Shown in pieces: positions 1,692 through 51,020 of a stretch of 64,000 nucleotides of DNA. The notes beneath the pieces are model-generated. The model saw nothing but the letters and a program-made list of their open reading frames with translations, did no database searches and was not told where the DNA came from. The position numbers were made by a program, and so were the translations under genes. Each line of letters opens with the position of its first letter. Position 1 is the stretch's first letter. This stretch comes from an uncultured Nitrososphaerota archaeon (GTDB lineage Archaea > Korarchaeota > Korarchaeia > Korarchaeales > Korarchaeaceae): contig CAZUBM010000004.1 in NCBI GenBank assembly GCA_964618805.1, positions 1 through 64,000 of the forward strand. The letters are read 5' to 3'.

Positions 1692-2127
1692 ATGGATGAT
1701 AAGAGAAAAGCCTCAAACGTATTGGCTATTATTTCCTATGTTTTGATCGTTTTGGCTGTTCTTTTATACATTATATCAACTTACAACTTAGTAGAAACGA
1801 TCGTTTTTGACTATGACCTCCGAGGATGCCGTGAATGTCGATATTGTTGAGGGTCCTGGCGGCGCAACAGCGGTTATTACTGCAAGCATAGTCGGAGGAG
1901 GGATAACGAGTACAGAGGTCAATGTGAGGGTAGAGCTATTGGATCAGACTAGAAATGTCTTTCTTCAAGCTGAAAACTCCACAACCATATCTCTAGGTTC
2001 TTCAGAGAAGTTAGTCCTAAGATTTGCTAATTTATCCAGGGAATCACACGCTATTAGGATTAAAATGGGATTTAGCACGCTAAAATCCATGCAAATTGAG
2101 ATAGAATCGGAGATGACGGGTGATTAG
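1692..2127 (+). pseudogene. Membrane-anchored beta-rich protein with an apparent +1 frameshift
   Basis: ATG at 1692 gives MDDKRKASNVLAIISYVLIVLAVLLYIISTY (TM anchor). Removing one T from the T5 run at 1804-1808 fuses it to the 1807-2127 ORF. Confidence 0.55.
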
Positions 2128-2587
2128 ATGACTAGGAGAGATAAGAGCTTGGTTTGGGCATCCTTGCTTATTTTGATATTTGTCGTGGTTCCCCTTGTCT
2201 CCTTCAAATACTTCCCTTGGTTCGAGGAGTCCTTCTACGACCTTACAGGAAAAAGCCCTACCTGGCTTGTGCTCAATCTATCCATTTTGGGCTTAATATT
2301 GGCCGTCCTCAACGTCATTTACGGGATATCTAAGGAAAGAAGTTACATTTCAGTAGTGCCTAAGGTAATATCCCCATTTGTTTGGTTCTATATGGCCATC
2401 TTTTTGTTAGGGCTTGGCGATCCCTCTTCATTTGGAATAGCAAGGCTAACCCTTAGAAATGAGGATCATTATAAGCAGTAAGCTCATAGTACTTAGACTC
2501 CTAAGAGCTGTGGTAGTAGGAGTAGTTTCCAGAGTTCTGGAATTCCTGGCTATAAGGGAAGAGAGAAAAATGGGCCACAAGAGCTAG
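2128..2587 (+). pseudogene. Multi-pass membrane protein with an apparent +1 frameshift near 2450
   Basis: ORF 2128-2481 has three TM helices. The +1 frame continues EMRIIISSKLIVLRLLRAVVVGVVSRVLEFLAIREE to TAG at 2587, a plausible fourth helix. Confidence 0.5.
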
Positions 2588-2677
2588 GAAGTAGTGAAGA
2601 AATAAGATGACATCAAAAGCTAGGAAACAACAAATAGAAGTAAAGAAATAACTTCCCTTGTGGTTCCCTTCATTTCT

Positions 2678-3817
2678 TCAAGAGTTCTCGACACACATCA
2701 CATATATTCTATAAAGCTTTTCAGCCACTCTCTTCCATGAATACTCTTCTGCCTTCTTTCTGGCATATCTTCCCATGGAATCGCGTAAACTTCGATCAAA
2801 TAGCAAAGATATCGCCTCAGCTAGCTTTTTATGGTCCTGCTTAGGCACTATTATCCCATCCCTCATATGGCCAACTATTTGGCTCGGACCTTCGGTATTA
2901 GTAACTATAACTGGCTTTCCACAGGCCATGGCCTCAATTACTACTTTTCCAAAAGGTTCTACTAAAGAAGGAAGGCAGAAAATGTCAGAGCTTCTGTAAA
3001 GATCTCTTAGCCTTCTCCTTGACACTCGGCTCTCAAACACGACTTCATCACTAAGACCAAGCCTCTTAGCAATCTCGCAAAGCCTTGCCCTTTCAGGTCC
3101 ATCGCCAACTATCCTTAGCCTCACGCAGCCTTTTTTTAAAACATGTACGGCCCTTATTAGGTAGTCAATTCCCTTCCTTTTCGTTAAGTTGGCGACTGTC
3201 AGTATCTCAATAAATTCCCTCTCCACCTTATTCTCTGCTGGTGAGAAGAAGTCTGTATCCACACCAAGTGGGATTACCCATACTTTATCAGGATCTAACA
3301 TCTTCAAATACGCCTCCTTTAACCTCTTCGTTTGAACCAAGACTGCGCTTGCCCTCTTAATGGTTGAAATGTGAGCTCCATATGTAAATCTTAGGGCAGA
3401 AGGACCTATGGTGGGATGACAAATTGGGCCTATAATAAATGGAATGCCCATTCTTTTTGTAATCGAGGTAATGGGATCAGATGTAAGGCCATATACTGCT
3501 GGAAACATCCTGTGTACGAGATCAATCTTGTTTGAAAACAGGATCTCGGAGGAAATTAAAAAAGCACTCAGTTGATAATAAAAACCATTCATCAAACCAA
3601 TTATGGAACTTGAAAGCCTAATGTAGTCCCTTATAACCCTTATTTCATAAATTCTGGCGTTTTTAAGTGGTCTTTTAATCAACACATTTCCTGCTACAGC
3701 ATAAAACTTCACCCTCTCATTGAGTTGTTTCATGATATTGTATGCTGCAAGCCCCTCGCTAGCCGGATAATAATCGCTAAGCTCGTAGGCCGATGAAGAC
3801 AGCAAGACCCTCAACAT
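2678..3817 (-). CDS. Glycosyltransferase family 4 (GT-B)
   Basis: IPLGVD, VANLTKRKGIDYL, IVGDGPE and LPSLVEPFGKVVIEAMACGKPVI motifs. Confidence 0.92.
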   Translation of the reverse strand: MLRVLLSSSAYELSDYYPASEGLAAYNIMKQLNERVKFYAVAGNVLIKRPLKNARIYEIRVIRDYIRLSSSIIGLMNGFYYQLSAFLISSEILFSNKIDLVHRMFPAVYGLTSDPITSITKRMGIPFIIGPICHPTIGPSALRFTYGAHISTIKRASAVLVQTKRLKEAYLKMLDPDKVWVIPLGVDTDFFSPAENKVEREFIEILTVANLTKRKGIDYLIRAVHVLKKGCVRLRIVGDGPERARLCEIAKRLGLSDEVVFESRVSRRRLRDLYRSSDIFCLPSLVEPFGKVVIEAMACGKPVIVTNTEGPSQIVGHMRDGIIVPKQDHKKLAEAISLLFDRSLRDSMGRYARKKAEEYSWKRVAEKLYRIYVMCVENS

Positions 3818-4133: not shown

Positions 4134-5558
4134 ATGAAATTGAAACGATTTTTCAGGCCTAAAAGAATTTTGTACGCATTTCAAATCATTATTCTGGCTT
4201 TAGTGATAGCTGGCATACCCCTCGTTACTAAAGATGTGACAGCAACGGCTTCTTACAGCATCTCGATATCGGTAAATCCAACTTCAGGAGAGAAAGGAAC
4301 TAGCTTTAAGGTCATAGCAAGCGTGAGCATATCGAATATGAAGACAGGAACTGCTTACGTTATTCTTAAAACGGTCGCTCCAGATGGAACATACGCCTAT
4401 TATGCAAGCTCGGCAAAGGATGTTCCTCCCCACAGGCAATGGACCTCTGGAGATATGCCAGTCTCTCAGACTTATACTTGGACTGTGACAGCGACCCAGA
4501 AGGGGGATTACGTCTCTACGATAGAAATAGTGATCGATGGAGATGCACCTAATGGCTTCCTAAAGGACAGTAGATCTGCAACATTTAGTGTGACATCTTC
4601 TGGCGAAGTAAGTGAAGATAGCTCCTCTTCTTGGATAGATGTCTCAGTTTCTCCTAGTTCAGTCCAGCAGGGAGGAACAGTGAAAATTACAGTTTCTACA
4701 AGCAGTTGGCTACCAGCAAACCCCCAAATATTGACGTACGTATATCCACCAAGCTCAAGCAAACCAGCAACATCCTACTCTGGAAAAGGGACTTTCTCCT
4801 TCAGCGTCCCTAGCAACGCGCAAACCGGAACCTGGACTGTAAAGAGTGTTATAAGGGACAGTGCTAGTAATAAAGTGGCCCAGGACCAGGCTGTCTTTAG
4901 CGTAATCACCTCGGGAGGAGAAAAGAGTTCAGGTCTGAGCAGTTGGATACAGATAAGGTCAGTTAGACCAGGAAGCCCTTACGAGGGCCAAGCTGTTAAG
5001 ATAGCTGTGCGCTACAATTACGCTGGTGAAGAGATACATAAGAGAGTAAGACTTATCGCCTTTGGGCAGGAGATGCAGCAGAGCGCATATAAAGGAAAGA
5101 ACGACGCTTCTTTCTCCATCATCCCAACCAAGGCGGGGACCTTTACTATAACCGCCATACTAGAGGAAGAAAAGCGGTCTCCAGTATTTGGAAAGTACTG
5201 GTCGGAGGTAGCATCTGACAGCTACACGATCACAGTAAACGTTAAGCTGACAACTCAACTCGTTCTAGAGTTCCCGAAAAAGGTGTATGTAGGAGATGCT
5301 ATCAACATAACAGTGAAGCTTCTCTGCGGAGGATTAGAGCTTAAAGGGATCTCTTGCAAGCTATATGTGGATCAGAGCGTGCATAACATCTTGAGCGGAG
5401 GGACCTTCACGATAAAGGCGACTAGGACAGGGACCATAGATGTGAGTGCGAAGTTCGAGGGAGATGAGGCACACAAACCCAGCCAGAATGGTGGAGGTCT
5501 GATAGAGGTCTGGACGAAGCCCAAGATAGAAGTAGATGAGGTCAAAACAAAGGGCTGA
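4134..5558 (+). CDS. Secreted multi-Ig-like-domain protein (putative filament tip/adhesin) ending in an orphan beta-strand
   Basis: Signal peptide MKLKRFFRPKRILYAFQIIILALVIAGIPLVTKDVTA (ATG 4134 preferred to TTG 4110). About four beta-sandwich repeats (e.g. VSVSPSSVQQGGTVKITV, TTQLVLEFPKKVYVGDAINITV). No C-terminal TM; ends WTKPKIEVDEVKTKG. Confidence 0.75.
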   Translation: MKLKRFFRPKRILYAFQIIILALVIAGIPLVTKDVTATASYSISISVNPTSGEKGTSFKVIASVSISNMKTGTAYVILKTVAPDGTYAYYASSAKDVPPHRQWTSGDMPVSQTYTWTVTATQKGDYVSTIEIVIDGDAPNGFLKDSRSATFSVTSSGEVSEDSSSSWIDVSVSPSSVQQGGTVKITVSTSSWLPANPQILTYVYPPSSSKPATSYSGKGTFSFSVPSNAQTGTWTVKSVIRDSASNKVAQDQAVFSVITSGGEKSSGLSSWIQIRSVRPGSPYEGQAVKIAVRYNYAGEEIHKRVRLIAFGQEMQQSAYKGKNDASFSIIPTKAGTFTITAILEEEKRSPVFGKYWSEVASDSYTITVNVKLTTQLVLEFPKKVYVGDAINITVKLLCGGLELKGISCKLYVDQSVHNILSGGTFTIKATRTGTIDVSAKFEGDEAHKPSQNGGGLIEVWTKPKIEVDEVKTKG

Positions 5559-5567
5559 GGTGATCTT

Positions 5568-6260
5568 ATGAGACTTAGGATGGGCATTTATGCATGGCTT
5601 CTCCTTATCCTGTCTATCTCTACCTTAGCACTGGGTACGTATGCTCTAAACAAAGTATATAGAGGGAACGTGGTTGAGATAAGAGGAAGAGTTGTAGATG
5701 AACTCGGACGTGGAGTCTCTAATGCTGTAGTTCAACTTAAGGATGGAGCAACCATCTTGGCGTCGACAAAATCAGGATCAGATGGAAGCTTTATAATAAA
5801 ATGGAATGTTCCAAGCTCGTATCCATTAGGTTCAAAAACTCTCACCCTATATGTCCCAGAACAGTCTTCCATTTATGTGGAGGAGTCATCAACTTCTATA
5901 GAGATGGAGATATGGGACAAAACCACTCTAAAACTCAATTCTATTCCAAAGAAGATACATAGAGGAGATGTCGTGACAATATCTGGAACCCTAACAGTGT
6001 TAGGATCTGGTGATCCAGTTTCCGGTGTAACCATAGCTATCTCCTATGGACAAAGCGAACTCGGTTCAACAAGAACAAGTAAAGACGGTAGGTTTTCTAT
6101 ATCGTTTAAGGTTCCAAAGAATTGGAATAGAGGACCGATTACAATTATTGCTGAGTTTCCAGGATCTCCCACCATCTATCTAGATGGCTCCAAGGACTCT
6201 ACAAGCACAGCTTTGTGGATAAAACCTACTATACAGGTCAAAAGCGTAACCTCAGGATAG
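5568..6260 (+). CDS. Secreted two-domain Ig-like protein (putative filament shaft subunit)
   Basis: GAGGTGA RBS and signal peptide. Two Big/carboxypeptidase-regulatory-like repeats; the first lacks the opening strand. Ends WIKPTIQVKSVTSG. Confidence 0.75.
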   Translation: MRLRMGIYAWLLLILSISTLALGTYALNKVYRGNVVEIRGRVVDELGRGVSNAVVQLKDGATILASTKSGSDGSFIIKWNVPSSYPLGSKTLTLYVPEQSSIYVEESSTSIEMEIWDKTTLKLNSIPKKIHRGDVVTISGTLTVLGSGDPVSGVTIAISYGQSELGSTRTSKDGRFSISFKVPKNWNRGPITIIAEFPGSPTIYLDGSKDSTSTALWIKPTIQVKSVTSG

Positions 6261-6263
6261 GTT

Positions 6264-7553
6264 ATGGGCAAGAGGATGAGTTTGAGGAAGGCGATTCTCT
6301 GCCTGCTCCTATTATTTCTACTGCTCTGCTTTTCCCCCGCCTCTGCTGCATCAAAACAGACTTATATCAGAGGGCAATCAGTTCTCTTAATAGCTAGGAT
6401 TCAAGACGATCTAAACAATCCCATTCCTGGTGTAAGATTGCAGTTTGAAGATCAAACAGACAACGTATATTTAGGGGATAACATTACCGATGCAAGTGGC
6501 GTAGCTTCGATAATGTGGAATACTTCTTCATCTTCGTTAGGTCCTCACGTAATCCATGTTTGGAACATCGAACATCAGGACCTATACGTAGAAGAAAGTC
6601 ACGCTTACTTAGAAGTTCATATAATAACTCCAGCAGAACTCTCTTTCTCTGTTCAATCTCCTGGGGCTGTTAAACCTGGAGAAAGATTTGTTATCACAGT
6701 AATTGTAGAAAACTTGGGTGAAGCTAGTATAAAAGATGTTATCGTTACACTAGGCGATCAGAGGCATAATATTGGGACGATAGATGGTGGAGGTAACTCA
6801 AAGACAAGCTTTGGTCTCATTGCTCCCGAGGCTGCAGGAAACTACATAGTTCAAGGCTCTATACGCGGAGAGGAAGAAGGAACTGGGAAGGTTTTACAAA
6901 AAAGCTTCAAAGTGAGTTACAGGGTCAAGATTGAGGGATTTGGCATCTCGATAAGCGCACCATCCAATGTAGAAGAGAACGAGAATTTTGATTTCTTAGT
7001 CATGCTCAATAACATTGGAGAAGATTCTCTGAAAATTGATGTTGAAGTCGTTCTAAGTGGGGCAGCCCCTAAAAACTTTCATCGGACTGTAACGCTTCCC
7101 CCGGGGGAATCAAAGGCAATTTATTTTTCTGCTAAAGCTGGAACTGGAGATTTGCTAACTATTACAGCTACCGGAACTGCTGGTAACCTTCGGGAATCGG
7201 ATCAAGTCAGTATAAATGTGTTGCATCCTCCCCAACTCCTCGCACCTTCCCAGCCCCCATCACCTGCCTTACTACCAAGTCAAACGCCTGCTCCCCTACA
7301 ATCTCCAGAACCCCGCTCTTTACCTCCTATTACAACTGAGAACCCTCCTGTGTCTACAACTCCCTCTAAAACATCCATACCGTCAGAAACATCTCCCCGA
7401 ACAACTCCAGAAGCTAAGGAATCGATCCCTGAATCACCACCTCCTACCCACGTCATAGGGGAAAGGAAGCCATACTCCTTGAATACTGTTGTAACAATCG
7501 CCCTTGTAATATTATTATTCATAAGGAGAATCTGGAAAGTAGAAGAACCTTAA
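6264..7553 (+). CDS. Ig/CARDB-like surface protein with Pro/Ser/Thr linker and C-terminal membrane anchor (putative filament base)
   Basis: Signal peptide ending ASA. Ig-like domain, then CARDB-like domains (VENLGEA, LPPGESK), a ~75-aa Pro/Thr-rich linker and TM TVVTIALVILLFI followed by RR. Confidence 0.78.
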   Translation: MGKRMSLRKAILCLLLLFLLLCFSPASAASKQTYIRGQSVLLIARIQDDLNNPIPGVRLQFEDQTDNVYLGDNITDASGVASIMWNTSSSSLGPHVIHVWNIEHQDLYVEESHAYLEVHIITPAELSFSVQSPGAVKPGERFVITVIVENLGEASIKDVIVTLGDQRHNIGTIDGGGNSKTSFGLIAPEAAGNYIVQGSIRGEEEGTGKVLQKSFKVSYRVKIEGFGISISAPSNVEENENFDFLVMLNNIGEDSLKIDVEVVLSGAAPKNFHRTVTLPPGESKAIYFSAKAGTGDLLTITATGTAGNLRESDQVSINVLHPPQLLAPSQPPSPALLPSQTPAPLQSPEPRSLPPITTENPPVSTTPSKTSIPSETSPRTTPEAKESIPESPPPTHVIGERKPYSLNTVVTIALVILLFIRRIWKVEEP

Positions 7554-28173: not shown

Positions 28174-28941
28174 TCATTGTAATTGTGCTTCTGTTCCAAA
28201 GAACTTCCTAAGATCCTTTAATGTACCAAAATCAAACGCACCACTTTCTTCATCAATCACTATAACCCTAAAAGATTCAAGATCGATTTTTCTTAATAAT
28301 GGAGAAAAAGGAAGCAATCTAAAGCTAATATCAGCACCAGGCGCCAAGGGGGAGACGGCTGGTAGGATTACAAGACAAGAATCATTCATCTTTCTAACCA
28401 AGTGACACTTAAACTTAGTTTTAGCTCCAACTTCATCTCTAAAGGTTATTGCTGGATGCTCGTGACCCATAACGATAATTCTTGCTCGTTTGAAAACTTC
28501 TTCTGGGACTCTCTTATGGCCGTGAACAAAAAGATATCTCCGAAGTAAAAAGAAAGGGTCATGGAAGGGTACTCGTCTTCTTTTGAGGATGGGGATGAGG
28601 TAATTATCGTGGTTCCCTCTAACAATGTGTAGTGCCACCCTTTGCTGAAGAGTATCTAATAGATCTAGAACCTCTATCCACTCCTGCCTACTTGCCTCTC
28701 CGAACTCGTGTTTTACATCTCCAACGATTATCAGAAGCCGGGGATTCAACTCATCCAAAAGATAAAGAACCCTCTCCTTTATTTTTGGATACTGGCTCTT
28801 GGGAAGGTGTATTCCCAACTCTAGGAGGGCCTCCTCATAACCTATGTGAAGATCTGCTATCGCTAATGCCTTGATTTCCTTTATGAAGACACCATAGGGA
28901 ACCAGCTCGATCCCTTCAATTATCTCCACCTTTTGCAACAT
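28174..28941 (-). CDS. Calcineurin-like metallophosphoesterase, Lhr-associated type
   Basis: ADLHIGYE, GDVKHEF, RGNHD, HGH, MGHEHP; overlaps the lhr 3' end. Confidence 0.9.
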   Translation of the reverse strand: MLQKVEIIEGIELVPYGVFIKEIKALAIADLHIGYEEALLELGIHLPKSQYPKIKERVLYLLDELNPRLLIIVGDVKHEFGEASRQEWIEVLDLLDTLQQRVALHIVRGNHDNYLIPILKRRRVPFHDPFFLLRRYLFVHGHKRVPEEVFKRARIIVMGHEHPAITFRDEVGAKTKFKCHLVRKMNDSCLVILPAVSPLAPGADISFRLLPFSPLLRKIDLESFRVIVIDEESGAFDFGTLKDLRKFFGTEAQLQ

Positions 28942-31900
28942 AGACCTCCCTCCCTATCATCTTTATCACCATGTTGTGAAGCCTTGCAAGCATCTGCCTC
29001 CTGCTCTCCATCAGCACTATGTCGCTCATCCCCTGAAGCACTATGTTGTGGGAGAATGGAGATGGCACCCTTGTTGGCTTAAGCATCACAACCTGAATCT
29101 TTCCCTTCCTGATCTTCCTAAGAACTTCCATCGCATTCCTAACGTCCATGAAGTCCTCCAATATCTCCCTGTAGGTTTCCTTCACCAGCGGAAATTCCCT
29201 AAGCTCCTTAACCACCTGAAGTATCTTCTTGGCGTTGAACTGCCTCCTCCTTATGCTGGTCTCCATCCCCTTGTATCTTCTGAGGAGCATCAATCCCCTC
29301 GTTGCAACGTGCCTGAACCTCCTTAAGAAGAGCTCAGTCCTTTCAACCGCTTTCTTAAGGATGGATGGGAGCTCCTCAGGTTTTATGTTCCTCAGGTATG
29401 ACTGACGAACCTCGACTCCAGGTGGGTAAACGATTGCGAAGCCGTGATCCCCAACAATGACGCCGAGGTTCCTCCTTACCTTAATTCCGGCTAAGTACGC
29501 AACTGCCCTTGAAAGGGCATCGTTGACCCTTCTTCCGAAGAGTGCGTGGTAGACAACGTACTTCTTGCCGTCTTCATCCACAAATACCTCAACCAAAAGC
29601 ACCCTGTCGGAGGGGAACTTCCTAACCCCTCTGGACTTAAGGTAAAGCCACTCCTCTCTGAAGTATCGCAAAATCGCGTTTGCTATGTTTTGATCTGCCC
29701 CGCAGTTCTTCATTATCCAGCTCACGATCTCCTCATTCTTTACTCCCTTCTCAAGCCACTTAAACATCTTGCCCCTGAACCTCGAGATCTCTAAAGCTAG
29801 ATCGTAGCTTAAAGGCAGCATCTCGCTGAACCAGCTTGGAACGGTCGGCTTCTCATCGTATGCAGGCATAACTACAGCTGTAAATCCCCTAACCGTCTTT
29901 ATGAACTCATAAACCCTTCCTCCAAGGACAAACCTATCTCCAGGCATGAGCCTCTCAAGGAACTCCTCCTCTATGCTGCCAAGCCTTTTTCCTCCAATGG
30001 TTCTAACCCTCACTCTAACCTCATCAGGGATAGTACCGACGTTTTGAGAGTAAATGGCCCTTGCAAGCTTGCCCCTTCTTCCAAAAACCCCTTCCTCTGG
30101 ATCATACCATATCTTCCCGTAGACCTTGTAGGCCTCCATCTCCGAGTAGGCTCCTGACAGGTACCTAAGAACCCTCTCAAAGTCATTCCATTCGAGATCC
30201 TCGTAAGGATATGCCCCCCTAACGAGTTCATATGCCTCCTTAACCTTCCACTTCTGTTCGATTGCCATTCCAGCTATGTGCTGTGCAAGAACATCTAGAG
30301 CGTTTCTTGGCATGTGAGCTCTGTCTAGATGTCCTGACATGGCTTCCTTCAACATTATTGCAACCTCTACAGCATCATCCCTATCTGAGCATATGAGTAT
30401 GCCCTTGCTAACCTCACTCAGCCTGTGGCCGGCCCTTCCAACCCTCTGTATGGCTCTTGTCACAGATTTGGGCGAGCCTAGCTGGACAACCAAGTCTATG
30501 TACCCTATATCTATCCCTAACTCAAGGGATGTCGAACTGACTATTGCTCGAAGCTCCCCACTCTTCAACTTCTCCTCTACGTCGTGCCTTACAGTCCTTG
30601 AAAGGGATCCGTGATGGGCTGCCACGTCATCCTTCTCTATCTCCTCAACGTAAAGGGGAAGTAGCTGCCTCAACTTAAAGGCAACCCTTTCGGCCCCGCT
30701 TCTTGTGTTTGTGAAGATGAGAGTTGTCCTGTGCTTCCTGATGAGGTCGCAAAGTATCTTGTACATCTTATCGTTTATCTTGCTAAAGGGTGTGTAGATA
30801 AGGTCTGGAACTGGAGCAATCACGCGAAGATCCATTTTCTTCGCGTAAGTTGTGTCAACTATCAGGCAGTCCCTTGGTTTCCCGTTTTTAAAGCCTACTA
30901 GGAACTTTGCAACCTCTTCCAGCGGATTTATCGTTGCTGAAAGGCCTATCCTTATTAAGGGCCTTCCTACGAGATGTTCCAACCTTTCAAGGGAGAGGCT
31001 AAGGTGCACTCCTCTCTTACTCTCCACAAGGCTGTGAATCTCATCTACAATGACCCATCTAATCTTTCTCAGCTTTTCCCTGAACTTTGGAGCTACAAGG
31101 ATTATGGCCAGGGTCTCTGGTGTGGTGATGAGTATGTGGGGAGGTTTTCTCAACATTTTCTGTCTTTCACTTGTGCTCGTGTCCCCAGTCCTTACTGCAT
31201 GCCTTATCTCCGGTAACTCAAGGCCCTTCTTCTTTGCAAGCTCGCGTATCTCCTCTAATGGCACCTTCAGGTTCCTGTAGATGTCGTTGTCCAGAGCCCT
31301 TAGAGGGGAGACGTAGATGGCAAACACGAAATCTTCCAGCTCACCTTTCCTAGCCATAGAAAGGAGCTCGCTTATTATGCCGATAAAAGCGGTCAAAGTA
31401 TTGTGAAGGACTATGCCACCTCTTCCTCCAATGAAATTTTGGAGGTTAGGAACAGTGAAGTCGATTAGTTTACCTTTGTAACTTACCTTACGGATTTTTC
31501 TTATCCTGAGGTAAAGAATATCAGAATCCCTAATTTTTTCGAGATAATTCAGAACACGTAAGTTTTTCACACCAAATTCTCTGCAATCCTCTTTTAGAAG
31601 CTCATACAACTTGTTTGCCGCATTTAATGTGATTTTTCCAGTTCTTCTTGCGACTTCGTATATGTTTCCGTATCTTTCTTCAAAGATGTCCCATAGCATG
31701 TTAAGGGATTTTGGAATCTCGCTTAAGTATTTTAGATCGATTAGAAACTTGAATAAGTGGTCTCCACTACTTTTGGTTTCTAATTTTGTCTTGAATTTCA
31801 GCGGAGGATCTCTTTCTAGCCCTATTTTCTCGTAAAATTTCTTGAGGTTTTCTTTACCGTGAATGTAGAGGAGATGATATGTTTCCCTTTTTCTCTCAGG

Positions 31901-33301
31901 TGTGTTAGATGCGTATTTACGTTGTTCACCTAAACATGGAAATATTCCAAATCTTAGGAGCATAAAGGAGATTTTGTCTATTACATCCCTACTTGCTTGG
32001 GCTAATGCTATTTGAGTCCCTATTTCTGCATCTAGGCTGATGAACCACCTTAAGAAGGTACGCATTAAGTCCTTATCCAGGTTAAGAATCCAACGAGGCA
32101 TTATCTTCCTTTTTTCCCTGCTGCAGGGTTGCAGGTCCAAATAAACAGATACAAATGTGCAAAAAGCTCTTGAATTGATGTTCCAATCCCTTTCGTTCTT
32201 TTGCGTCAGCTCTATCCCAAATAATTGCTTGGAAATTTCTAAGAATTCTCTTAATAGCTTCACATTCTTAGACTGCGATACTGAGATAAAGTCAACAACG
32301 CCTCTCTTTACTCGGCTGGATTGAATATGACCTTCGCTAAGGACAAAAGATATCCACTTAACAACTTCCTCAGTGACAGATTCTGGATATTTGAAGGTAT
32401 CTATGCTTCCGTTCTCCAATAAGACGAAGAGCCTATTTCTCTCAATATCTTTAGGAAAGGCACGTTTCAAGACTTCGATGATAAGCTCTCTCCCATAACT
32501 TGTTTCACCTCTGAAAAACTTCCATACGGTAGTTGTCCCGATGCCAGTTAATTTTGCAATTTTCGAATAGCTTAACCCACAGAAGACTCTTACCAAATTC
32601 AATTCCTTATCGTTAAGAGACTGGAATCCAGATTTGGAGATTTTCTCCCTCAGTTGGACATAATCACTGTATGTCAACACCTTTTTGAAGTTCTTCCTCA
32701 GCGTATCAATAGCTTTGCCTAGGGGAAGATCGATTTCTGGGCTCTGATAATCAATTCTCCTGATAACAGCTATCATGTCTCCAACTCTTAATTCCTTGGC
32801 AGGAATCCATCTTCCAAAACCATCCGCTGTAGCCACCAACAAAGGATGATCTGGAGTGACTTTGATCTTCCGTCCTGCTTCTGTTTCTATGACCAAAATT
32901 TCCCCTTGGTAATCTTGAGCAAATACAAAGGCAGGAATCTTAACAGTATTCGTTTCCTTTAATGAAAATACCCTAAGAGATGGAATGAAGTAAAGTTCTC
33001 CATCTTCAATGTAAGCCAAGAGTTTTCCCATGCTTTTTGCTTTAGAGATTATTTCTTCTCCTCTCACTAACTGTACTATTCCATTAAGCTCGATTAGAAT
33101 TTGCTGATCTGGTGTAATACATTTTCCTGAGCCAGTAGGGCTTGAGATAAGGACATTCTTTCCTTCATGGATTGGGATTATGCCATACCTTTGGGGAGGA
33201 GTCAAGTCCTCGAAATTTAAGTCAAACCACTCGGAGACGAGTGGATCTAGCACAGAGAGCACTTCCTCCTTAGTGTACTGCCTAGTCGCCCTCCTTATCA
33301 A
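28916..33301 (-). CDS. lhr: Lhr-family SF2 helicase precursor containing one intein (extein ~887 aa)
   Basis: SSPTGSGK|intein|TLTAF, SPLRAL, TTPETL, DEIH, GLSAT, HHGSL, SLELGIDIG, QRVGRAGH. Confidence 0.93.
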   Translation of the reverse strand: MIRRATRQYTKEEVLSVLDPLVSEWFDLNFEDLTPPQRYGIIPIHEGKNVLISSPTGSGKCITPDQQILIELNGIVQLVRGEEIISKAKSMGKLLAYIEDGELYFIPSLRVFSLKETNTVKIPAFVFAQDYQGEILVIETEAGRKIKVTPDHPLLVATADGFGRWIPAKELRVGDMIAVIRRIDYQSPEIDLPLGKAIDTLRKNFKKVLTYSDYVQLREKISKSGFQSLNDKELNLVRVFCGLSYSKIAKLTGIGTTTVWKFFRGETSYGRELIIEVLKRAFPKDIERNRLFVLLENGSIDTFKYPESVTEEVVKWISFVLSEGHIQSSRVKRGVVDFISVSQSKNVKLLREFLEISKQLFGIELTQKNERDWNINSRAFCTFVSVYLDLQPCSREKRKIMPRWILNLDKDLMRTFLRWFISLDAEIGTQIALAQASRDVIDKISFMLLRFGIFPCLGEQRKYASNTPERKRETYHLLYIHGKENLKKFYEKIGLERDPPLKFKTKLETKSSGDHLFKFLIDLKYLSEIPKSLNMLWDIFEERYGNIYEVARRTGKITLNAANKLYELLKEDCREFGVKNLRVLNYLEKIRDSDILYLRIRKIRKVSYKGKLIDFTVPNLQNFIGGRGGIVLHNTLTAFIGIISELLSMARKGELEDFVFAIYVSPLRALDNDIYRNLKVPLEEIRELAKKKGLELPEIRHAVRTGDTSTSERQKMLRKPPHILITTPETLAIILVAPKFREKLRKIRWVIVDEIHSLVESKRGVHLSLSLERLEHLVGRPLIRIGLSATINPLEEVAKFLVGFKNGKPRDCLIVDTTYAKKMDLRVIAPVPDLIYTPFSKINDKMYKILCDLIRKHRTTLIFTNTRSGAERVAFKLRQLLPLYVEEIEKDDVAAHHGSLSRTVRHDVEEKLKSGELRAIVSSTSLELGIDIGYIDLVVQLGSPKSVTRAIQRVGRAGHRLSEVSKGILICSDRDDAVEVAIMLKEAMSGHLDRAHMPRNALDVLAQHIAGMAIEQKWKVKEAYELVRGAYPYEDLEWNDFERVLRYLSGAYSEMEAYKVYGKIWYDPEEGVFGRRGKLARAIYSQNVGTIPDEVRVRVRTIGGKRLGSIEEEFLERLMPGDRFVLGGRVYEFIKTVRGFTAVVMPAYDEKPTVPSWFSEMLPLSYDLALEISRFRGKMFKWLEKGVKNEEIVSWIMKNCGADQNIANAILRYFREEWLYLKSRGVRKFPSDRVLLVEVFVDEDGKKYVVYHALFGRRVNDALSRAVAYLAGIKVRRNLGVIVGDHGFAIVYPPGVEVRQSYLRNIKPEELPSILKKAVERTELFLRRFRHVATRGLMLLRRYKGMETSIRRRQFNAKKILQVVKELREFPLVKETYREILEDFMDVRNAMEVLRKIRKGKIQVVMLKPTRVPSPFSHNIVLQGMSDIVLMESRRQMLARLHNMVIKMIGREVYVAKGGDN
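31400..33121 (-). mobile_element. Intein (574 aa) with LAGLIDADG-type endonuclease, in the Lhr Walker A
   Basis: Starts CITPD after GSGK; block B VTPDHP; ISFVLSEG and FLRWFISLDA endonuclease-like blocks; ends IVLHN followed by Thr. Confidence 0.92.
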
Positions 33302-33342: not shown

Positions 33343-36324
33343 TTACCTCAAAAGCTCAGATTCGTACCTCTTTAGGTATTCAACTGCATCAGAAACGTTT
33401 CTGAACAGAGATCTTACTTCCTCCACGTCCTTTGCCGATATTTTATCCCTTCCGTTTGCCCTAGCTCTAACTCCGGCTATGCTCAATATCTGGACAGCAT
33501 GCCTTAAAGATGTAGCTCCTCCTATCTCCTTGAGGAGGGCCAATGCCTCTTCATCAGCTTTGATATCCTCCTCCTTCATCCTTATCTTCAAGATCTCTTC
33601 TATTTCCTCTGGCTTATACTTCTCAGTAGTTATGATTACTAACCTGTCCAAGAGGTCAAGAGGAAGTCCGAAGGGGGCCTTCTCGTCGGTGCCCCTTATG
33701 GTCGTCACCCCCCTGTTAGTCGCCATAACTATTATTGGTACGAGCTCCCCTTCCATCGCCCTCGTAAGGAAGCTAAGGGCCTCTATGTCCATCATGTGGA
33801 TGTTATCTATGAAGAGCACTCCTGGAATTATCTCAGCTCTGCGTTGTTCCACCCATTCGTTAACTTGCTGATCTACAGCTGCCCTTATCTCTGGATCTAT
33901 CTCTTTCTCTGTAGTGCCTCCAAAGAGAAGGGAGAAGAACCCTCCTCCCCTTCTTTTCATGAACATCTCATCGAGGTCAGCAAGTGTTAGGGTGTAAACG
34001 AACTCTTTCTTCTTAAGAACGGGTCCGCTTGGTTTTGGAATTACCTCTGCCTCTCCTACATCATATCTCTTTCCAATGCTCTCAGATACGCCTACCTTAG
34101 ATATCCTTCCGGTATCAGCATCTATCTGGATGATGTCGCCCTCCCTTATCCCGTTCTGAACGACCGTGTAAGCAACGGACTGCCCTGCCTCAATCGTCTT
34201 CTTCTCATCTTTCGTCTCTAATGTTATCCTCACGCTTTCAGGGACCTTCTGATATGGATTATAGGGGTTTGATGTCCATCTGACGTGTATGTCGGTTACC
34301 TCTCCCTCGTAGATGTCCCTCATCTCCCTTATCCTTACTCCTATTGCCTGCCTCATAGCATCCATAAGCACGTCAGTCTTCTTCCTTTCTGCGCTGTATA
34401 TCTCAGAGCCAGTTATGGCTATGAAAGGCACGTCTCTTCCAAGCTCCCTTGCCATTGCTACAGCAATCGCAGTATTATGGACCACAATACCTCCAAATCC
34501 TGCTATGAACGTGGGGGATTCCTCATTTACGCACAAATCGTAAACATAGATTTGATGATCTGACTCTATCATGTGTACCTCCTTAACGTAGTCCCAGAAG
34601 ATGTCGGAGAAAGCTAGCTTATGAAGTACCTCGGAATTACCTATCTTGTTGTTCTTAACAACTCTTTGCAGCATTTTCCTGGAGATCCTTCTGAAGTTTC
34701 TGTTATTCGGAGACAACTCATATCTATATCCTCCCTTAGATCCATAGAACTCGCCTTTGCTCTTTTGAAGCTTCTTTCTCGCTATTTTAAGCCTTTTTCT
34801 CACTCCAGGGATGAAGTCCACGTTTGTAGAGCTCGCTCTTTTGTGAAGAGTTTCGAGTCTCTCCCTTCTCTTCTTTGTAAAGAATCCTATCTCCTCCCTA
34901 AACTTCTTAACGAATTCTCCTCCTGAAACCACAATTCTGTAGTAGATGCGCTTTTCTCCATTGACTGAGATCTCTCTTTTGCGAATCCTAGCTACTATAC
35001 CAAATCTCAGGAGCAAGTAAGCAAGTTTGTTTGCGATGTTTTCGCTTGAGGTATTAATCGATATCTCCTCGTCGCTGATGTCTGATTCTCCTTCACAGAA
35101 CGCCCTTAAGAATGCCCTTACACATTCGTCGTCACTCCTTAGGATGAAATTCGGTACGTCTTTGTAGCGTGCTCTCCTCCCAACGCTGTATCCTATTGCC
35201 TTAAGGTACTCAGCTAGGCTCCATGAATTTACCCTCACAGCTGGAGTCCTGTCATAAGTTATTCTATGAGTTCTAAGTTTGAACAACTTCCTTACTAGAT
35301 GCTCAAACCTCCTCAGCAGAGCTTCATCAGTGTTGTGGAATCTTACGGAATATATGCGTCTTTTTTCATCCACATATTCGTCGCACTCCGAAATAAGATA
35401 GCCGATGAACTCTGCAAGCTCTGGAGTTACGCTTGAAGGGGCCTCTATTGGAAGTGTCCTGCTATAAAGTGAATATCTGACTAGGAAGGGGTTTTCCAAG
35501 TTGTTAAGGCTTTCGAGGTAAGGCATGTCCTTGATGACCCATTTTCGCGCTGTTTCTGGACAAACTTCGAACTCTCTTGCTATTTCGCGATATGAAGCCC
35601 CACCATCCCGCAGAATAATTGCCCTTGCCCTCTGTGCTCTCCTACTCAAAATGTATCTAACAGATCTCTCACTATACTCTCTCACATCTTTCTTAAGCTG
35701 GAGGTTATTTGATGGACTAACTTGAACTCTCCTAGGAACGGCTATGTGGGAGCCCGCCTTGAGTTCTCTGGCCCTAACGAACCTGATCTCTCCGTCCTCT
35801 ATTGTCAGAAATGGATGCTCTCCTGTAACTGTTATGCTCCTTCCTGATCTCGTTACAACTTTGAATAAAGGTTCCTCCACCTTCTGTCTGTACACGTAGC
35901 TGATATCCTGATTTTCAAACGTAAGGGTGTTTAGATTCAAAGATATCACAGTTATCTTCTTGTTAGGTTTTACGAGAACCTCATTTTCGCTTAATTTCAC
36001 GGTTTCTCCATCTCTAATGGCTTCCTCAAATATCTTCTCTATCTCCATCAGTGAGCCATCGCCAAGAAGGACGGGAGTATCCTCAACTACACATTTTCCC
36101 GTTCCTGGAGGGCCAGCTAGTAAGACTGCCTTCCCCGCAAGCTTTCCCTCTTTGGCCATGTTAACTATGAGGCCTGCAGCTTCCCTTGCCCTTATCTGTC
36201 CGACCATTCCGTCAGCTACCCTAAGTGCCTTCATGTTCTCATCCAAACCGAGCCCTCTTATGTGGCTGTGGGCCCCTATTCTTCTGGAAATAACCCTGAC
36301 AGCTGATTCTCCTATGTCGGACAG
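33343..36324 (-). CDS. tip49: TIP49/RuvB-like AAA+ ATPase precursor containing one intein (extein ~453 aa); probable CTG start
   Basis: RIGAHSHIRGLGLD lies upstream of the TTG at 36246. GPPGTGK|intein|TAIA, GSEIYS, YEGEV, PGVLFIDNIHM, MATNRG, PLDLLDRL. Confidence 0.92.
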   Translation of the reverse strand: MSDIGESAVRVISRRIGAHSHIRGLGLDENMKALRVADGMVGQIRAREAAGLIVNMAKEGKLAGKAVLLAGPPGTGKCVVEDTPVLLGDGSLMEIEKIFEEAIRDGETVKLSENEVLVKPNKKITVISLNLNTLTFENQDISYVYRQKVEEPLFKVVTRSGRSITVTGEHPFLTIEDGEIRFVRARELKAGSHIAVPRRVQVSPSNNLQLKKDVREYSERSVRYILSRRAQRARAIILRDGGASYREIAREFEVCPETARKWVIKDMPYLESLNNLENPFLVRYSLYSRTLPIEAPSSVTPELAEFIGYLISECDEYVDEKRRIYSVRFHNTDEALLRRFEHLVRKLFKLRTHRITYDRTPAVRVNSWSLAEYLKAIGYSVGRRARYKDVPNFILRSDDECVRAFLRAFCEGESDISDEEISINTSSENIANKLAYLLLRFGIVARIRKREISVNGEKRIYYRIVVSGGEFVKKFREEIGFFTKKRRERLETLHKRASSTNVDFIPGVRKRLKIARKKLQKSKGEFYGSKGGYRYELSPNNRNFRRISRKMLQRVVKNNKIGNSEVLHKLAFSDIFWDYVKEVHMIESDHQIYVYDLCVNEESPTFIAGFGGIVVHNTAIAVAMARELGRDVPFIAITGSEIYSAERKKTDVLMDAMRQAIGVRIREMRDIYEGEVTDIHVRWTSNPYNPYQKVPESVRITLETKDEKKTIEAGQSVAYTVVQNGIREGDIIQIDADTGRISKVGVSESIGKRYDVGEAEVIPKPSGPVLKKKEFVYTLTLADLDEMFMKRRGGGFFSLLFGGTTEKEIDPEIRAAVDQQVNEWVEQRRAEIIPGVLFIDNIHMMDIEALSFLTRAMEGELVPIIVMATNRGVTTIRGTDEKAPFGLPLDLLDRLVIITTEKYKPEEIEEILKIRMKEEDIKADEEALALLKEIGGATSLRHAVQILSIAGVRARANGRDKISAKDVEEVRSLFRNVSDAVEYLKRYESELLR
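34474..36093 (-). mobile_element. Intein (540 aa) with LAGLIDADG-type endonuclease and HTH, in the TIP49 Walker A
   Basis: CVVEDT after GTGK; VTGEHP; LAEFIGYLISEC and FLRAFCEGES blocks; VYDL...IVVHN followed by Thr. Confidence 0.92.
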
Positions 36325-44707: not shown

Positions 44708-46804
44708 ATGGTAAACATCACTAAGGTCCTGAACTCTTTCATCTCTTGGATGGAACTGAGGGGCTATAGGCCTGGGACCATAAGGCAATACTCTTATGAC
44801 GCTAAAAGGTTCTTGCTATGGCTAAAGAAGGATCCAACAAAAGTTGATGAACAAGAAATCTCAGAATATCTGCTTAAGATAAAATCTGAGAGGAGCCTTA
44901 GCAATAGCACAATGCTGAGAAGGATAGCCTCTCTAAGGACATTCTACGAGTTTTTAGTAGATCAAGGCATGATGCAGACTAATCCTGTAACGATAAGGAG
45001 GCCGAGAGTTAGAAGGAAGCTACCAAACATCCTTTCAAGGGAGGAGGTAGAAAGGCTTATCTTAGCTGGGAGAAATGAGAGAGATAGGCTTCTTCTCAGG
45101 CTTTTATATGCTACTGGAGCTAGAGTAAGCGAGATATCATCCTTAAAATGGGAAGATGTTAATGTAAAGGAGAAAACCGCTATTATAAGGGGAGGAAAAG
45201 GAGGAAAAGACAGGATTGTTCTTTTTGACGATGTAACAGCAAGAGAACTCGCGAAGTATAAGAGCAAACACGGAGGTCAGGGCAGGATATTTCCTCTTTC
45301 TCCAAGGACCATCCAAAGGATTGTTAAAATGGCAGCTGCCAGAGCAGGACTGCACAAAGAAGTTCATCCCCACACCTTGCGTCACTGCCTTCATCCAGAA
45401 ACTAGAGTACTCACTTCAAATGGATTTCTACCGGCTAAATTATTGTTCTTCTTTAATCATGAGGTTCTTACAATTGATCCTTCTGATCACTCCTGGAAGG
45501 CATGCAAAGTTTCTCAAAAATTACATCACATCGCCGATAGACTTCTTTCGATTTGGGCAGGAGGAAGAGAGCTTATATGCACACCTGAGCACACGGTTTT
45601 TGTCCTTAGGAAAGGAAGGATCGTAGAAATTCAAGCTGGCGAGTTAAGCGTAGGTGATTACATTGCTGGAGTGGGGAGAATACCATTTAATACTGGCAGA
45701 CGGTATCTGGATGCAGATCTCTGGCAATTAATTGGATATTATGTAGGAGATGGAGCCTTATGTGAAGAACGCAGAGTAGTTAGGCTTTGCGATAAACAGA
45801 AGGAAATCGCAGAGCATTACAAGAAGATTGCTGAGAACTATGGTTTTAACTCATCTATCAAGAAGATTGGAAATAGCTACGAGGTACACATCCATAGTGT
45901 CACATTTATGGAGTTGCTCAAAACGTTGCTACTTGATAAGGTCTCTTCTCAAAGAAGGGTACCTGTTAAGCTATTTGAAGCAACGGAAGAAGAGAAGTGG
46001 GCGTTTATCTCTGGATTCTTGGATGCTGAGGGCTGGCAGAGGAAAGATGGCGTAATAGCCTTTGCTAACAGCAACAAAGAACTTCTGAAGGACATACAAA
46101 TGTTGCTGTTGAGTACAGGAGTGCATGCAAATTTGGAAAAGAGGATAAGAAAAGTTAAGCTGCCAGGTGGGAAAATCATTGAGAACAATAAAATCTATTA
46201 CCTCTTGATTTGCAGAGGGGAGGATATAAACAAATTCGTTGAGAATTCGAGATCTATTAAGGATCTTTTCAAAATAAGGAGGTTAAGAGTTCTTTCTCAG
46301 AAGAACCAAGTAATTCCAGTTCACGACCTACTGAAAGACATTTACAGGAGAAGGAAAGAGGAAGGAAAGCCTGTAGGTACGCTCTGGAGATATAGTAAGA
46401 TTCCTCCCTCGAGAGATAAGTTAAGAGAGCTTCTGAAAATGCTAGAAGACGAGCCTGAATACGAGTTGTTGAAGAAATTATGTGAGCAGGATGTGGTGTG
46501 GCTAAAGGTTAACAATATTGAGAGGAGCGGTGGATATTCCGAATACTTGAAAAATAAGGAGGTCAAGATCACGAGATTTACAGTTTACGACTTCGAGGTG
46601 GATCAAACTAACACATTGGTGACAGATGGTATATTAAGCCATAATTCGATGGCAACCCACCTTCTCGAGAGTGGGGCAGACCTGAGGGCAATCCAGGAAC
46701 TCTTAGGTCACGCTTCACTAAGCACAACTCAGATATACACCCACGTTTCCAGGGAACATTTGAAAAGGGAGTATAAGAAGTTATGGGAGAATAAGAAAGG
46801 ATAA
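44708..46804 (+). CDS. xerA: XerA-type tyrosine recombinase precursor containing one intein (extein ~278 aa)
   Basis: SAM-like N-domain, [25 protein letters not shown]|intein|[34 protein letters not shown]. Confidence 0.9.
45386..46645 (+). mobile_element. Intein (420 aa) with LAGLIDADG endonuclease, directly after the HxxRH catalytic motif of XerA
   Basis: CLHPET start, CTPEH block [10 protein letters not shown] and [10 protein letters not shown] blocks, VYDFEV...ILSHN followed by Ser. Confidence 0.93.
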
Positions 46805-49502: not shown

Positions 49503-51020
49503 TTAGTCCCCGCTTATTGGTATTGTAACTACGAGCCAATCGTCATCGTCCAGAATATAAGGCTTGCACTCCGTCCAAACATATGGATCGACCAAAGAAT
49601 CTTTTATGAGGCCTTCACAGAAAGGCACATAGATCCTATGGGTCTTAACTATCCAAAGCTTGCTTGCTTGAAACTGAAGGAGGAATCCAACTTCATCCCA
49701 AGGAACTATATCGTCTCCAACCTCATTAACATCCGTTAAATTAAGGGAATGGTCTGTCTGTGGGCCATAATCGATCCTGAGATCTATCCTGGCCCACTCA
49801 GTGGTCAGGGAAAATTCAGGTATGTAGAAATTGATGGTAGTTGGATTTCCGTCGGGGCCGGGGGATATACTGAAGGACCCACTCCTTTCGATACTGAGGT
49901 TTAACCTTACCAAACTAGTGCCAAGAAGTACCCTTCCACTATACTCAAAAATGACAAGCTCGAACCGTCCATCTGGTTCTATAGTCTCGATCTGTAGGAA
50001 GGCCTCTCCATTGGTCCAAGGAATTGGAACAAGCTCGTCCTTCTTGAGCACAGCTCCTTCCACAAATACCGTGAAGTTAGAAAAGAGCGGGTTGTAACGC
50101 ACTGATGCCCATGTCCAAGGTCCTGGGGCTTCTAGAGAGTAAGAATAGGAGCTAGAGTATACTCCAAGAAATATGGAGACGTTCTCTCCTAATCCTATGC
50201 TCCTTGATTGATTAACGTTCTTCTCGAGGTAAAACGCGTTGTATTTTCCGTTAAGAGGGAACTCATTGTCGTTGGCTCCTCTAATTATGTACCATCCAGT
50301 ATCGTTCTGAGTTATTACCCAAACCCTCGTTACACCAGAAGGAACATCTCCTTCTCTCGTTATGTTCAAGAAGGAGATTTCAGGTGGAGCAGGAGGAGGT
50401 CTGTATATCTTATAATCCCTTAATGAGAGTGGAAGGCCATATCTGTTGAGCACAACTACCGCCCAATAGTCTTTACTATCCCCAAGCTCAACAAGCTCTA
50501 TAGCTGAAGCGTAAGTAGCATATCTGTTTGTTCCAGCGACGTAAATTAGGGTATAGTTCTCGTTCCAGGGATTTGGCATAGCTCCAACTATTCCAACCTC
50601 CAAGTTACCACCCCATGTCCCTCCTGGTGAGAAATCGAGCTTGAAGTACCAACCATCTTCACCTTTGAAAAAGAGAAACATTGAAGTCTCATTAACTGTT
50701 TTAGAAAGCGTGTTAGCAACAGGTCCACCTACAACAATGAGATGATTGCCCCTAAGATCGGATTGTGTCACTCTGCTCGCGTTTAATATCGTGACATCCC
50801 CTCCAAAGGAGGTTATGTAATCTGAAATGAGTTCTGCTGCTTCAACATCCATGTGTGCTGCATTTTCTCCATAAACAATGAGCGTCTTTGGCCCTTCTTT
50901 GGTCATAAGAACTGTTTTTAGAGGACAAAATGGTCTAAGATTCTCTTCAACTCCTCTAACTTTATGAAGAATCGTTATTGATAGTATAATTAACACAAAT
51001 AGTAAGAAGGTCCTTCTCAT
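49503..51020 (-). CDS. Secreted protein with an S-layer-type domain
   Basis: Signal peptide from ATG 51020; IVYGENAAHMDVEAA, LIVVGGPVAN and YVAGTNRYAT match archaeal S-layer N/C-terminal domain motifs. Confidence 0.7.
   Translation of the reverse strand: MRRTFLLFVLIILSITILHKVRGVEENLRPFCPLKTVLMTKEGPKTLIVYGENAAHMDVEAAELISDYITSFGGDVTILNASRVTQSDLRGNHLIVVGGPVANTLSKTVNETSMFLFFKGEDGWYFKLDFSPGGTWGGNLEVGIVGAMPNPWNENYTLIYVAGTNRYATYASAIELVELGDSKDYWAVVVLNRYGLPLSLRDYKIYRPPPAPPEISFLNITREGDVPSGVTRVWVITQNDTGWYIIRGANDNEFPLNGKYNAFYLEKNVNQSRSIGLGENVSIFLGVYSSSYSYSLEAPGPWTWASVRYNPLFSNFTVFVEGAVLKKDELVPIPWTNGEAFLQIETIEPDGRFELVIFEYSGRVLLGTSLVRLNLSIERSGSFSISPGPDGNPTTINFYIPEFSLTTEWARIDLRIDYGPQTDHSLNLTDVNEVGDDIVPWDEVGFLLQFQASKLWIVKTHRIYVPFCEGLIKDSLVDPYVWTECKPYILDDDDWLVVTIPISGD

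Follow-up and report, generated by a model that had tools for sequence, protein, structure and literature searches.

Strand donation recurs in bacteria and archaea as a way of building extracellular fibres without energy input, and the AbpA and TafE bundling pili as well as the Pyrodictium cannulae are reportedly archaeal donor-strand filaments. Here we describe a three-gene operon, P1-P2-P3 (positions 4134-7553), found in the genome of an uncultured archaeon of the Korarchaeaceae, within positions 1-64,000 of contig CAZUBM010000004.1 (assembly GCA_964618805.1); this whole stretch of 64,000 nucleotides (nt) is referred to as the window. The operon probably encodes a Sec-exported surface fibre whose subunits are joined non-covalently by C-terminal strand donation. 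The host is an archaeon, since a partial small-subunit (SSU) rRNA on another contig of its genome matches the archaeal model RF01959 with 745.5 bits.

Among the closest described systems, the type V pili (FimA/Mfa1, with the tip Mfa3-4 and the anchor Mfa2/FimB) rely on a C-terminal donor, the acceptor is opened once an N-terminal segment has been cut off, and tip, shaft and anchor lie in one cluster; the tip is devoid of a donor, the lipid-anchored base donates, and the lipoproteins are opened by Arg-gingipain (PMC8512630, in the part of the report available). Compared with what that part describes, the operon would also have a C-terminal donor, predicted as P2 residues 189-204 lying on the first domain (D1) of a second P2 copy, but its polarity would be reversed, with a cap (P1) that is donor only and an anchor (P3) that is acceptor only. 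Signal-peptide removal is presumed for the operon and its N-termini carry no lipobox Cys (P2 has 0 Cys), unlike in type V pili. Moreover, P1-P3 have no sequence relation to the type V pili, whose hosts are Bacteroidota, in contrast to the single-membrane archaeon considered here. No FimA/Mfa family occurs among the Pfam matches of P1-P3 at E ≤ 1, and no fimbrilin among the listed Foldseek matches against the PDB.

Other pili use other donor strands. The Elr (WxL) pili have N-terminal donors and the Pam pili of the candidate phyla radiation (CPR) use a linker strand; both have membrane-anchored chaperones and a base held at the cell membrane or wall (10.64898/2026.10.17.759780, PMC13278184, each as partially available). 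As far as these partial sources describe them, the chaperone-usher, WxL and Pam pili share with the present proposal the chaining by strand donation and the dedicated tip and base subunits, but they fill a missing core strand with an N-terminal or linker donor and depend on chaperones of the PapD-like or DUF916 type, whereas the donor proposed here is C-terminal and would add an edge strand. In the sources cited here, as far as available, the polarity of the chaperone-usher, WxL and type V systems is the reverse of that proposed for the operon. An N-terminal donor extension is not present in our case, as mature P2 and P3 begin directly with a domain. In the genome of the window (G000, 93.7% complete), searches with PF00345 (PapD_N; controls E. 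coli and D. radiodurans positive, usher family not searched), PF12389 (TasA-like; control B. subtilis positive) and PF09721 (exosortase family; control positive in 1 of 14 genomes, hence of poor sensitivity) gave 0 matches each.

Among archaeal filaments, the Sulfolobus threads (Saci_0406/0405) have an N-terminal donor and a putative donor-only cap encoded beside the main subunit, and their polarity is stated to be unknown (PMC9715654, available part). AbpX has an N-terminal donor too, and the 'C-terminal donor strand' mentioned there is an engineered self-complemented construct (10.64898/2026.01.04.697558, available part). According to these excerpts, threads and bundling pili are archaeal, Sec- or Tat-exported, without a known chaperone and built by head-to-tail strand donation, as is proposed here; however, threads and AbpX have pilin-like or jelly-roll (Peptidase_M73-type) folds with an N-terminal donor, whereas the operon has a C-terminal donor and a different fold, and the excerpts describe no membrane-anchored base subunit for them, a role that P3 would play here. 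In line with what the first-pass annotation had supposed, no natural C-terminal donor strand was met in any archaeal filament of the papers searched, although further donor-strand surveys may be contained in the supplements to the papers on threads, AbpX and Elr.

P1, P2 and P3 are three co-directional open reading frames (ORFs) on the plus strand in the ORF listing of the window, separated by spacers of 9 nt (P1-P2) and 3 nt (P2-P3). Their parts, with lengths in amino acids (aa) and models made with AlphaFold2 (AF2), are as follows.

4134..5558, plus strand: P1, proposed distal 'cap' subunit, 474 aa, comprising four beta-sandwich domains between a signal-peptide-like N-terminus and a donor tail.
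5511..5555, plus strand: P1 junction Trp and putative C-terminal donor tail, W-TKPKIEVDEVKTKG, from the conserved motif, DSSP and the alignment with the P2 tail.
5568..6260, plus strand: P2, proposed extender subunit, 230 aa, from the ORF, Pfam and AF2.
5568-5645, plus strand: P2 signal peptide.
5646..5915, plus strand: P2 D1, predicted acceptor domain without an A strand, starting at the signal-peptide cleavage site, from DSSP.
5916-6218, plus strand: P2 second domain (D2), with its own A strand.
6216..6257, plus strand: P2 junction Trp and putative C-terminal donor tail, W-IKPTIQVKSVTSG, from invariant residues and the model interface.
6264..7553, plus strand: P3, proposed membrane-anchored base subunit, 429 aa, from the ORF, Pfam CARDB and the alignment with P2.
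6264-6350, plus strand: P3 signal peptide.
6351-6626, plus strand: P3 predicted acceptor domain D1.
Between P3 D1 and the stalk, plus strand: two CARDB-like domains, from Pfam CARDB.
7221-7448, plus strand: P3 Pro/Ser/Thr-rich stalk, with 23 P, 12 S and 10 T in 76 residues.
About 7473-7523, plus strand: P3 transmembrane (TM) helix.
7530-7550, plus strand: P3 conserved cytoplasmic end, IWKVEEP.

All the strings quoted by the first-pass annotation were recovered in place. Indeed, P1 contains VKLTTQLVLEFPKKVYVGDAINITV and ends with EVWTKPKIEVDEVKTKG and the stop (W to stop, 5511-5558), P2 contains EIWDKTTLKLNSIPKKIHRGDVVTISG and ends with ALWIKPTIQVKSVTSG and the stop (W to stop, 6216-6260), and the internal P2 domain reads W-DKTTLKLNSIP-KKIHRGDVVTISG. 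After their hydrophobic N-termini, P2 goes on with LNKVYRGNVVEIRG and P3 with ASKQTYIRGQSVLLIA. Each of the three proteins has a signal-peptide-like start made of a basic segment, a hydrophobic core and an A-x-A-like site, the signal peptides and cleavage sites being judged by eye. The tails of P1 and P2 show the pattern of an extra strand, W-x-K-P-x-I-x-V, and P2 and P3 begin, past the signal peptide, where the donor strand would end. The first domain of P1 opens with its own A strand, SYSISISV, and P1 is therefore donor only. The division of labour first proposed, with a donor-only P1, an acceptor-plus-donor P2 and an acceptor-only P3 carrying a Pro/Thr stalk and a TM anchor, fits the sequence anatomy. 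A single broken or frameshifted gene, already dismissed in the first-pass annotation, is ruled out by the stops, the separate signal-peptide-like starts and the P1-P2-P3 order, which recur in 10 loci. The P1 ORF can be read as 482 aa from TTG 4110 or as 474 aa from ATG 4134, in both cases ending at 5558; a TTATAA seen by eye about 30 nt upstream of ATG 4134 is a hint for that start only. A GAGGTGATC box lies ahead of the P2 start and overlaps the P1 stop.

The origin of the tails can be read from sequence relations within and outside the operon. In Pfam, P2 residues 38-86 match CarboxypepD_reg (profile 2-51, 53.5 bits against a cut-off of 32.3) and residues 124-203 match Big_3_5 (profile 2-75, 31.0 bits, below the cut-off of 35.5), while P1 has weak matches to A2M_BRD, Big_3_5 and BatD. 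P2 domains therefore belong with the families of the Big_3_5/CarboxypepD_reg tandem, but the domains are spread over three ORFs. One solved relative, a SusC-homologue N-terminal domain, was retrieved from the PDB in a sequence-profile search (E 3.8e-4). By BLASTP, P2 31-227 aligns with P1 283-470, its last two domains, through both tails (E 1e-4), and P2 1-148 is colinear with P3 5-154 from the signal peptide onward (E 2e-6); a P2 profile also matches P3 (E 1.5e-20). A second BLASTP segment matches the P2 tail to the internal P1 junction SSW-IQIRSVRPG-SPYEGQAVKIAVRY, which leads into the next P1 domain.

A profile made from nine P2 sequences was searched against 1.84 billion representatives without length limits and returned 6255 library proteins at E ≤ 1e-3. 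Among the best 150 of these, 147 are repeat proteins of 564-6305 aa and three (P0004, P0028, P0099) have at most 230 aa; matches of giant proteins to the two-domain profile reach 526 bits. Three giants were aligned to the profile, namely P0006 (2989 aa), P0013 (2937 aa) and P0016 (1852 aa). Ten of their 36 matches run into the tail (profile position 220 or later), and in all ten the next residues, read from the alignment context, open a following domain of the type G-x-x-[IV]-x-[IV]-x-G-x-[LV]-x-D. An example of a covalent junction in a giant is ...LKLNTTINITNIT followed by NTKIGNNVTISGVLVDENNNPI, whose split counterpart in the operon is ...LWIKPTIQVKSVTSG (stop) and LNKVYRGNVVEIRGRVVDELG. Hence giant Big_3_5/CarboxypepD_reg repeat proteins share the two-domain unit, and the strand before each of their domains corresponds to the operon tails; however, they are single polypeptides with covalent junctions, whereas the operon consists of three genes, each with its own signal peptide. 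Since the junctions match, the P2 tail together with the mature N-terminus of P2 or P3 would recreate a junction that is covalent in other archaea and bacteria. On these alignments, the C-terminal tails of P1 and P2 behave as the detached first (A) strand of a following domain, and the suggestion of an orphan first strand at both C-termini is corroborated by the ten giant-protein junctions and by the internal P1 junction. By eye, P0006, P0013 and P0016 each end in a hydrophobic, TM-like segment.

The arrangement is conserved. In 10 of 10 three-gene loci (the window, genomes G037, G003, G004, G006, G007 and G040, and three metagenome contigs), the P1-P2-P3 order is kept together with the tails, the acceptor N-termini and the separate signal peptides, and mature P2 and P3 start at a domain in every one of them. 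These loci come from a single small phylum, in which they cover two classes and three genera, so that the synteny search proposed by the first-pass annotation came out in its favour: homologues keep both the tail and the gene order. Contig ends cut P1 in G037, P1 and P3 in L023, and P3 in L024, and in L025 P1 lies in two frames (ORFs of 122 and 231 aa), perhaps because of a frameshift or a misassembly confined to that contig. Within the order, P2 or its profile matched 7 of 38 genomes (E ≤ 1e-5), and within the phylum 8 of 43 (E ≤ 1e-12). Leaving G000 aside, the genera with matches were g1 (2/4), g2 (4/5) and g8 (1/1), and none was found in g3 (0/1), g5 (0/4), g6 (0/2), g7 (0/2), g9 (0/1) and g10 (0/1). 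A search limited to proteins near the query length gave 5, query included. A first contig scan gave 1 unrelated bacterial match (L004, 30% identity over 69 residues), and the metagenome contig scan gave three further loci.

The tails in particular are retained, being present in 13 of 13 P2 and 11 of 11 full P1/P1' C-termini (P1' being a P1 paralogue described below). The P1 C-terminus reads ...GGLIEVWT[KR]P.I..., with GGLIEVWT.P invariant in 8/8 aligned P1/P1' sequences, and the P2 C-terminus reads ...LW[VI][KR]P[TN]I.[VI]..., with L216, W217, P220, T221 and I222 invariant in 9/9 sequences. In G040, which belongs to the other class, the P1 end is ...VYVWSKPHFENI... and the P2 end ...EVWSKPHFKDI...; there the two tails have changed together (P1 WSKPHFENI..., P2 WSKPHFKDI...), and in every locus P1 and P2 tails follow [KR]-P-x-[IF]-x-[VI]. 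When majority fractions were computed over 13 P2 sequences, D1 was the most conserved part of P2 (0.78), followed by the tail (0.69; 0.77 for its core WxKPTIxV), the rest of D2 (0.59) and the internal A strand homologous to the tail (0.49). Donor-side interface residues reach 0.70, compared with 0.57 for the rest of D2 plus tail.

Some further features of the termini were noted along the way. The P1 tails of g2 and of related contigs have a Cys near their end (L015, L016, L018, L023, L024, L025), mostly in ...VGCGE(G), with VGCEG in L018 and ISCSKGD in L023, and the one of G006 (L017) has none; a disulphide lock is unlikely, because the P2 acceptor domains listed there are without Cys. The predicted mature N-terminus is Gln in 8/9 listed P2 sequences, Leu in P2 of the window and Ala in that of G040, and by eye Gln comes first in about seven of eleven P3/P3' sequences; a Gln there could turn into pyroglutamate next to the acceptor site. 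P3 ends in a TM helix in the three-gene loci, and in the seven of g1/g2 whose P3 C-terminus is present W[KR]V[EN].. comes after this helix; more broadly the cytoplasmic end [IVLF]W[KRG]V[EN][EDKQ][PR] is conserved in g1, g2 and P3' (L015-L019, L025, L002, L010); P3 of G040 ends differently (...KEEEP). No conserved motif was seen ahead of the P3 TM helix, the conserved part coming after the helix, and this pattern suggests a cytoplasmic partner or a retention signal.

Structure models agree with the reading of the tails. Mature P2, modelled by AF2 on a 6-row alignment, gives two beta-sandwiches with a predicted local distance difference test (pLDDT) of 93.1 and a predicted template modelling score (pTM) of 0.75. 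DSSP on this model finds an A strand (93-97) in domain 2 that domain 1 lacks; past residue 191, in the tail 192-204, it assigns no secondary structure. Mature P1, modelled on an 8-row alignment (pLDDT 80.8), has domains at 1-116, 130-220, 233-331 and 337-422 (mature numbering from 4248) and a tail, 423-436, with no DSSP structure after residue 422 and a last pLDDT block of 51. The folding of the tail back on its own chain, regarded from the start as a finding that would speak against the idea, is hence not seen in either monomer. Foldseek against the PDB returned generic macroglobulin/immunoglobulin (Ig) tandems (complement C3/C5, alpha-2-macroglobulins, titin); for P1 these were macroglobulin-type domains of C3/A2M only, with no functional lead for the cap.

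The complex of two mature P2 copies was predicted on a custom 6-row alignment. It scored 0.59 (runs 0.60, 0.59, 0.59) against 0.01 for the best of three controls, which ranged over 0.00-0.01. Of 30 proteins solved as same-chain pairs, 20 reach the mark of the complex predictor, as does 1 of 23 solved as single chains; owing to the custom alignment, these benchmark counts hold only roughly here. At least 98% of the contacts agree between the runs and the partner pLDDT is at least 92. Residues 106, 158-159, 162-163 and 189-204 of copy 1 meet residues 2-5, 8-21, 24, 27, 29, 68, 70, 76-79, 81-83, 85 and 87 of copy 2. In this prediction the tail of copy 1 pairs with the first long strand of copy 2 D1, head to tail and antiparallel (register 197-202 against 17-10), the closest pairs being 201 with 11-13, 199 with 13-15, 197 with 15-17 and 202 with 10. 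Contacts 198-68, 201-85/87 and 192-77 lay the hydrophobic side of the tail on the opposite sheet, where L68, V70, Y77, I85 and M87 are predicted to be covered. The interface is asymmetric and leaves one tail and one acceptor free, as chain growth needs. The multimer test first suggested for P2 with P2 thus placed the tail, by prediction, on the N-terminal domain of the other copy.

Based on these elements, a mechanism can be proposed. A covalent string of beads (macroglobulin/Ig-like and transthyretin-like) would have been cut between an A strand and the rest of its domain, so that P1 and P2 would carry the A strand in their final 13-14 residues (W-x-[KR]-P-x-[IF]-x-[VI]...), and export with signal-peptide removal would free N-terminal domains that begin just past it. 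P3 would form the base on its 76-residue Pro/Ser/Thr-rich stalk, with a free acceptor at the far end. The tail of P2 would dock into that acceptor and rebuild a junction resembling the internal one of P2, while P2 would offer a new acceptor that could in principle bind another P2. More P2, or P1, would then dock, and P1, a four-bead distal cap without an acceptor, would end the chain; the reverse order, with the cap first and the anchor last, would be equally possible. In this scheme P2-P2 docking is predicted by the model, whereas P1-P2 and P2-P3 docking is what we infer; statements on how many P2 copies a fibre holds (one or more), on the order of assembly, on an adhesive or spacer function and on the binding target of the cap are likewise conditional.

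Two paralogous loci lack the extender. In G000:C7:89822-92487 (L002 35-2688) and G034:C17 (L010 604-3272, minus strand), P1' is directly followed by P3' without P2. P1' has 463 aa in G000 and 459 aa in G034, with the tail EVWTKPVL..., and P3' has 421 and 430 aa, respectively, with a TM helix and LWKVEKP or FWGVEEP. Among 4821 stop-to-stop frames of G000, the tail is found on P1, P2 and P1' only, 4 other regex matches looking unrelated, and the anchor motif W[KRG]VE[EDK][PR] in only 2 ORFs, P3 and P3'. That the tail and anchor motifs are confined to these proteins speaks for donor-acceptor pairing as the heart of the device. At the same time the extender is optional, and the 'shaft' reading is therefore weakened.

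Several observations weigh against a fibre built by strand donation, or against its extension by P2. Only two of the five P2 AF2 models are confident (93.1 and 92.9, the other three 73-75). D1 is modelled confidently alone (pLDDT 88-98) and CarboxypepD_reg covers it from profile position 2; as it models and matches Pfam nearly complete, the missing strand is, on the model, an added edge strand, unlike the core strand of chaperone-usher pilins. The original expectation that the acceptor domain would be incomplete alone therefore holds as to the absent edge strand and fails as to the confident, nearly complete fold. The complex model covers the P2-P2 pair alone, with one predictor and a shallow alignment, and up to 19 of 100 single chains may reach the mark of that predictor. 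The spread is narrow, with 8/43 genomes of the phylum at E ≤ 1e-12 and none of the 21 genomes of g4. Among 197 eight-residue windows the tail core comes 60th in conservation and is thus well conserved but not the best-conserved stretch, and predicted acceptor-interface residues are not enriched within D1 (0.772 vs 0.780; the observed mean is equalled or exceeded by 5994 of 10000 random subsets). The close packing of the genes, with spacers of 3-9 nt and overlaps in genus g2, gives no sign of a P2 excess, and P2, dispensable in two loci, may be a single spacer. In parallel, the self-polymerising P2 shaft put forward in the first-pass annotation is only partly backed, since the head-to-tail P2-P2 model passes the mark but P2 is skipped in the two paralogous loci.

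This last point leads to a fixed 1:1:1 membrane-anchored stalk of about nine beads, with the same strand donation, P2 as a single spacer and n = 1 as the natural state, which can be held as a tentative alternative. The P1'-P3' loci in G000:C7 and G034:C17 show that donor and anchor suffice, the packed or overlapping genes resemble a co-translated unit, and P2 is a single mid-operon gene in 10/10 loci; on the other hand, the P2-P2 model has an open head-to-tail interface and passes the mark, and the pattern shared by P1 and P2 tails everywhere, with its joint change in G040, argues for interchangeable acceptors. Granted strand donation, P2 is thus about as likely to polymerise into a shaft as to sit singly in a fixed P3-P2-P1 stalk. 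It is rather unlikely, in turn, that P1-P3 are three independent secreted or anchored Ig-like proteins whose tails are leftovers of a fission or extensions on their own domain. D1 is confident alone, the predicted acceptor-interface residues have no special conservation, bead domains are very common, as the 6255 library proteins indicate, and structure predictors often place chains side by side. However, a leftover would be expected to decay, yet the tail persists in all full C-termini and is better conserved than the internal strand, it is unstructured in both monomer models, the complex-model controls stayed near zero, and donor and acceptor features co-occur in 10 three-gene and 2 two-gene loci.

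Highly improbable is a tail acting as a signal for another partner, such as S-layer docking or a processing or sorting enzyme, even though short conserved C-terminal motifs are typical of sorting signals. The window does encode a 522-aa protein with an S-layer-like family outer domain (49503-51071, minus strand, PF05124, E 8.2e-10), a separate candidate S-layer protein whose presence also makes an S-layer role for P1 or P3 less likely. In the g2 locus L015 (G003), a PrsW-family intramembrane metalloprotease (1915-2694, minus strand, PF13367, E 1.6e-28) lies just upstream of the operon, and by eye a similar ORF is present in L017 (G006; 2001-2780, minus strand). Nevertheless, a protease does not adjoin the operon in the window or in L016, the motif is without a subsequent hydrophobic or TM segment, no exosortase-family match was obtained with PF09721 (within the limited sensitivity given above), and the motif is homologous to an ordinary A strand.

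A donor-strand-linked fibre variant with a C-terminal donor, an acceptor anchor and no chaperone found thus remains the probable reading of P1-P2-P3. The more ambitious proposal of a new class of archaeal fibre, a split repeat adhesin with an anchor acceptor and a cap donor in which a P2 homopolymer grows distally to a length set by the P2:P1 ratio and the two-gene paralogue is a short version, can be advanced only as a possibility, and a doubtful one.

As for the surroundings, the neighbours of the operon encode a glycosyltransferase, ManC and an epimerase. Elsewhere in the window, an Lhr-type helicase (28916-33301, minus strand), a TIP49/RuvB-like ATPase (33343-36246, minus strand) and a Xer-type tyrosine recombinase (44708-46804, plus strand) all carry an intein and LAGLIDADG domains. 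A 94-nt tRNA at 61831-61924 (minus strand), reported as 'tRNA-???' by ARAGORN, may be an intron-containing archaeal tRNA.

Collectively, if only a fixed three-protein stalk were formed, it would still be an unusual surface-protein assembly, of narrower interest. If the fibre reading is true, the operon would represent a C-terminal-donor system on an Ig/transthyretin-like bead, with an explicit polarity, because the acceptor-only P3 carries the membrane anchor. As only few parts are needed, chiefly the tail of 13 residues and the acceptor domain of 90, it lends itself to tests in vitro even though the organism is uncultured. It would also point to an evolutionary route to such fibres, in which a covalent repeat protein is split where one strand ends.

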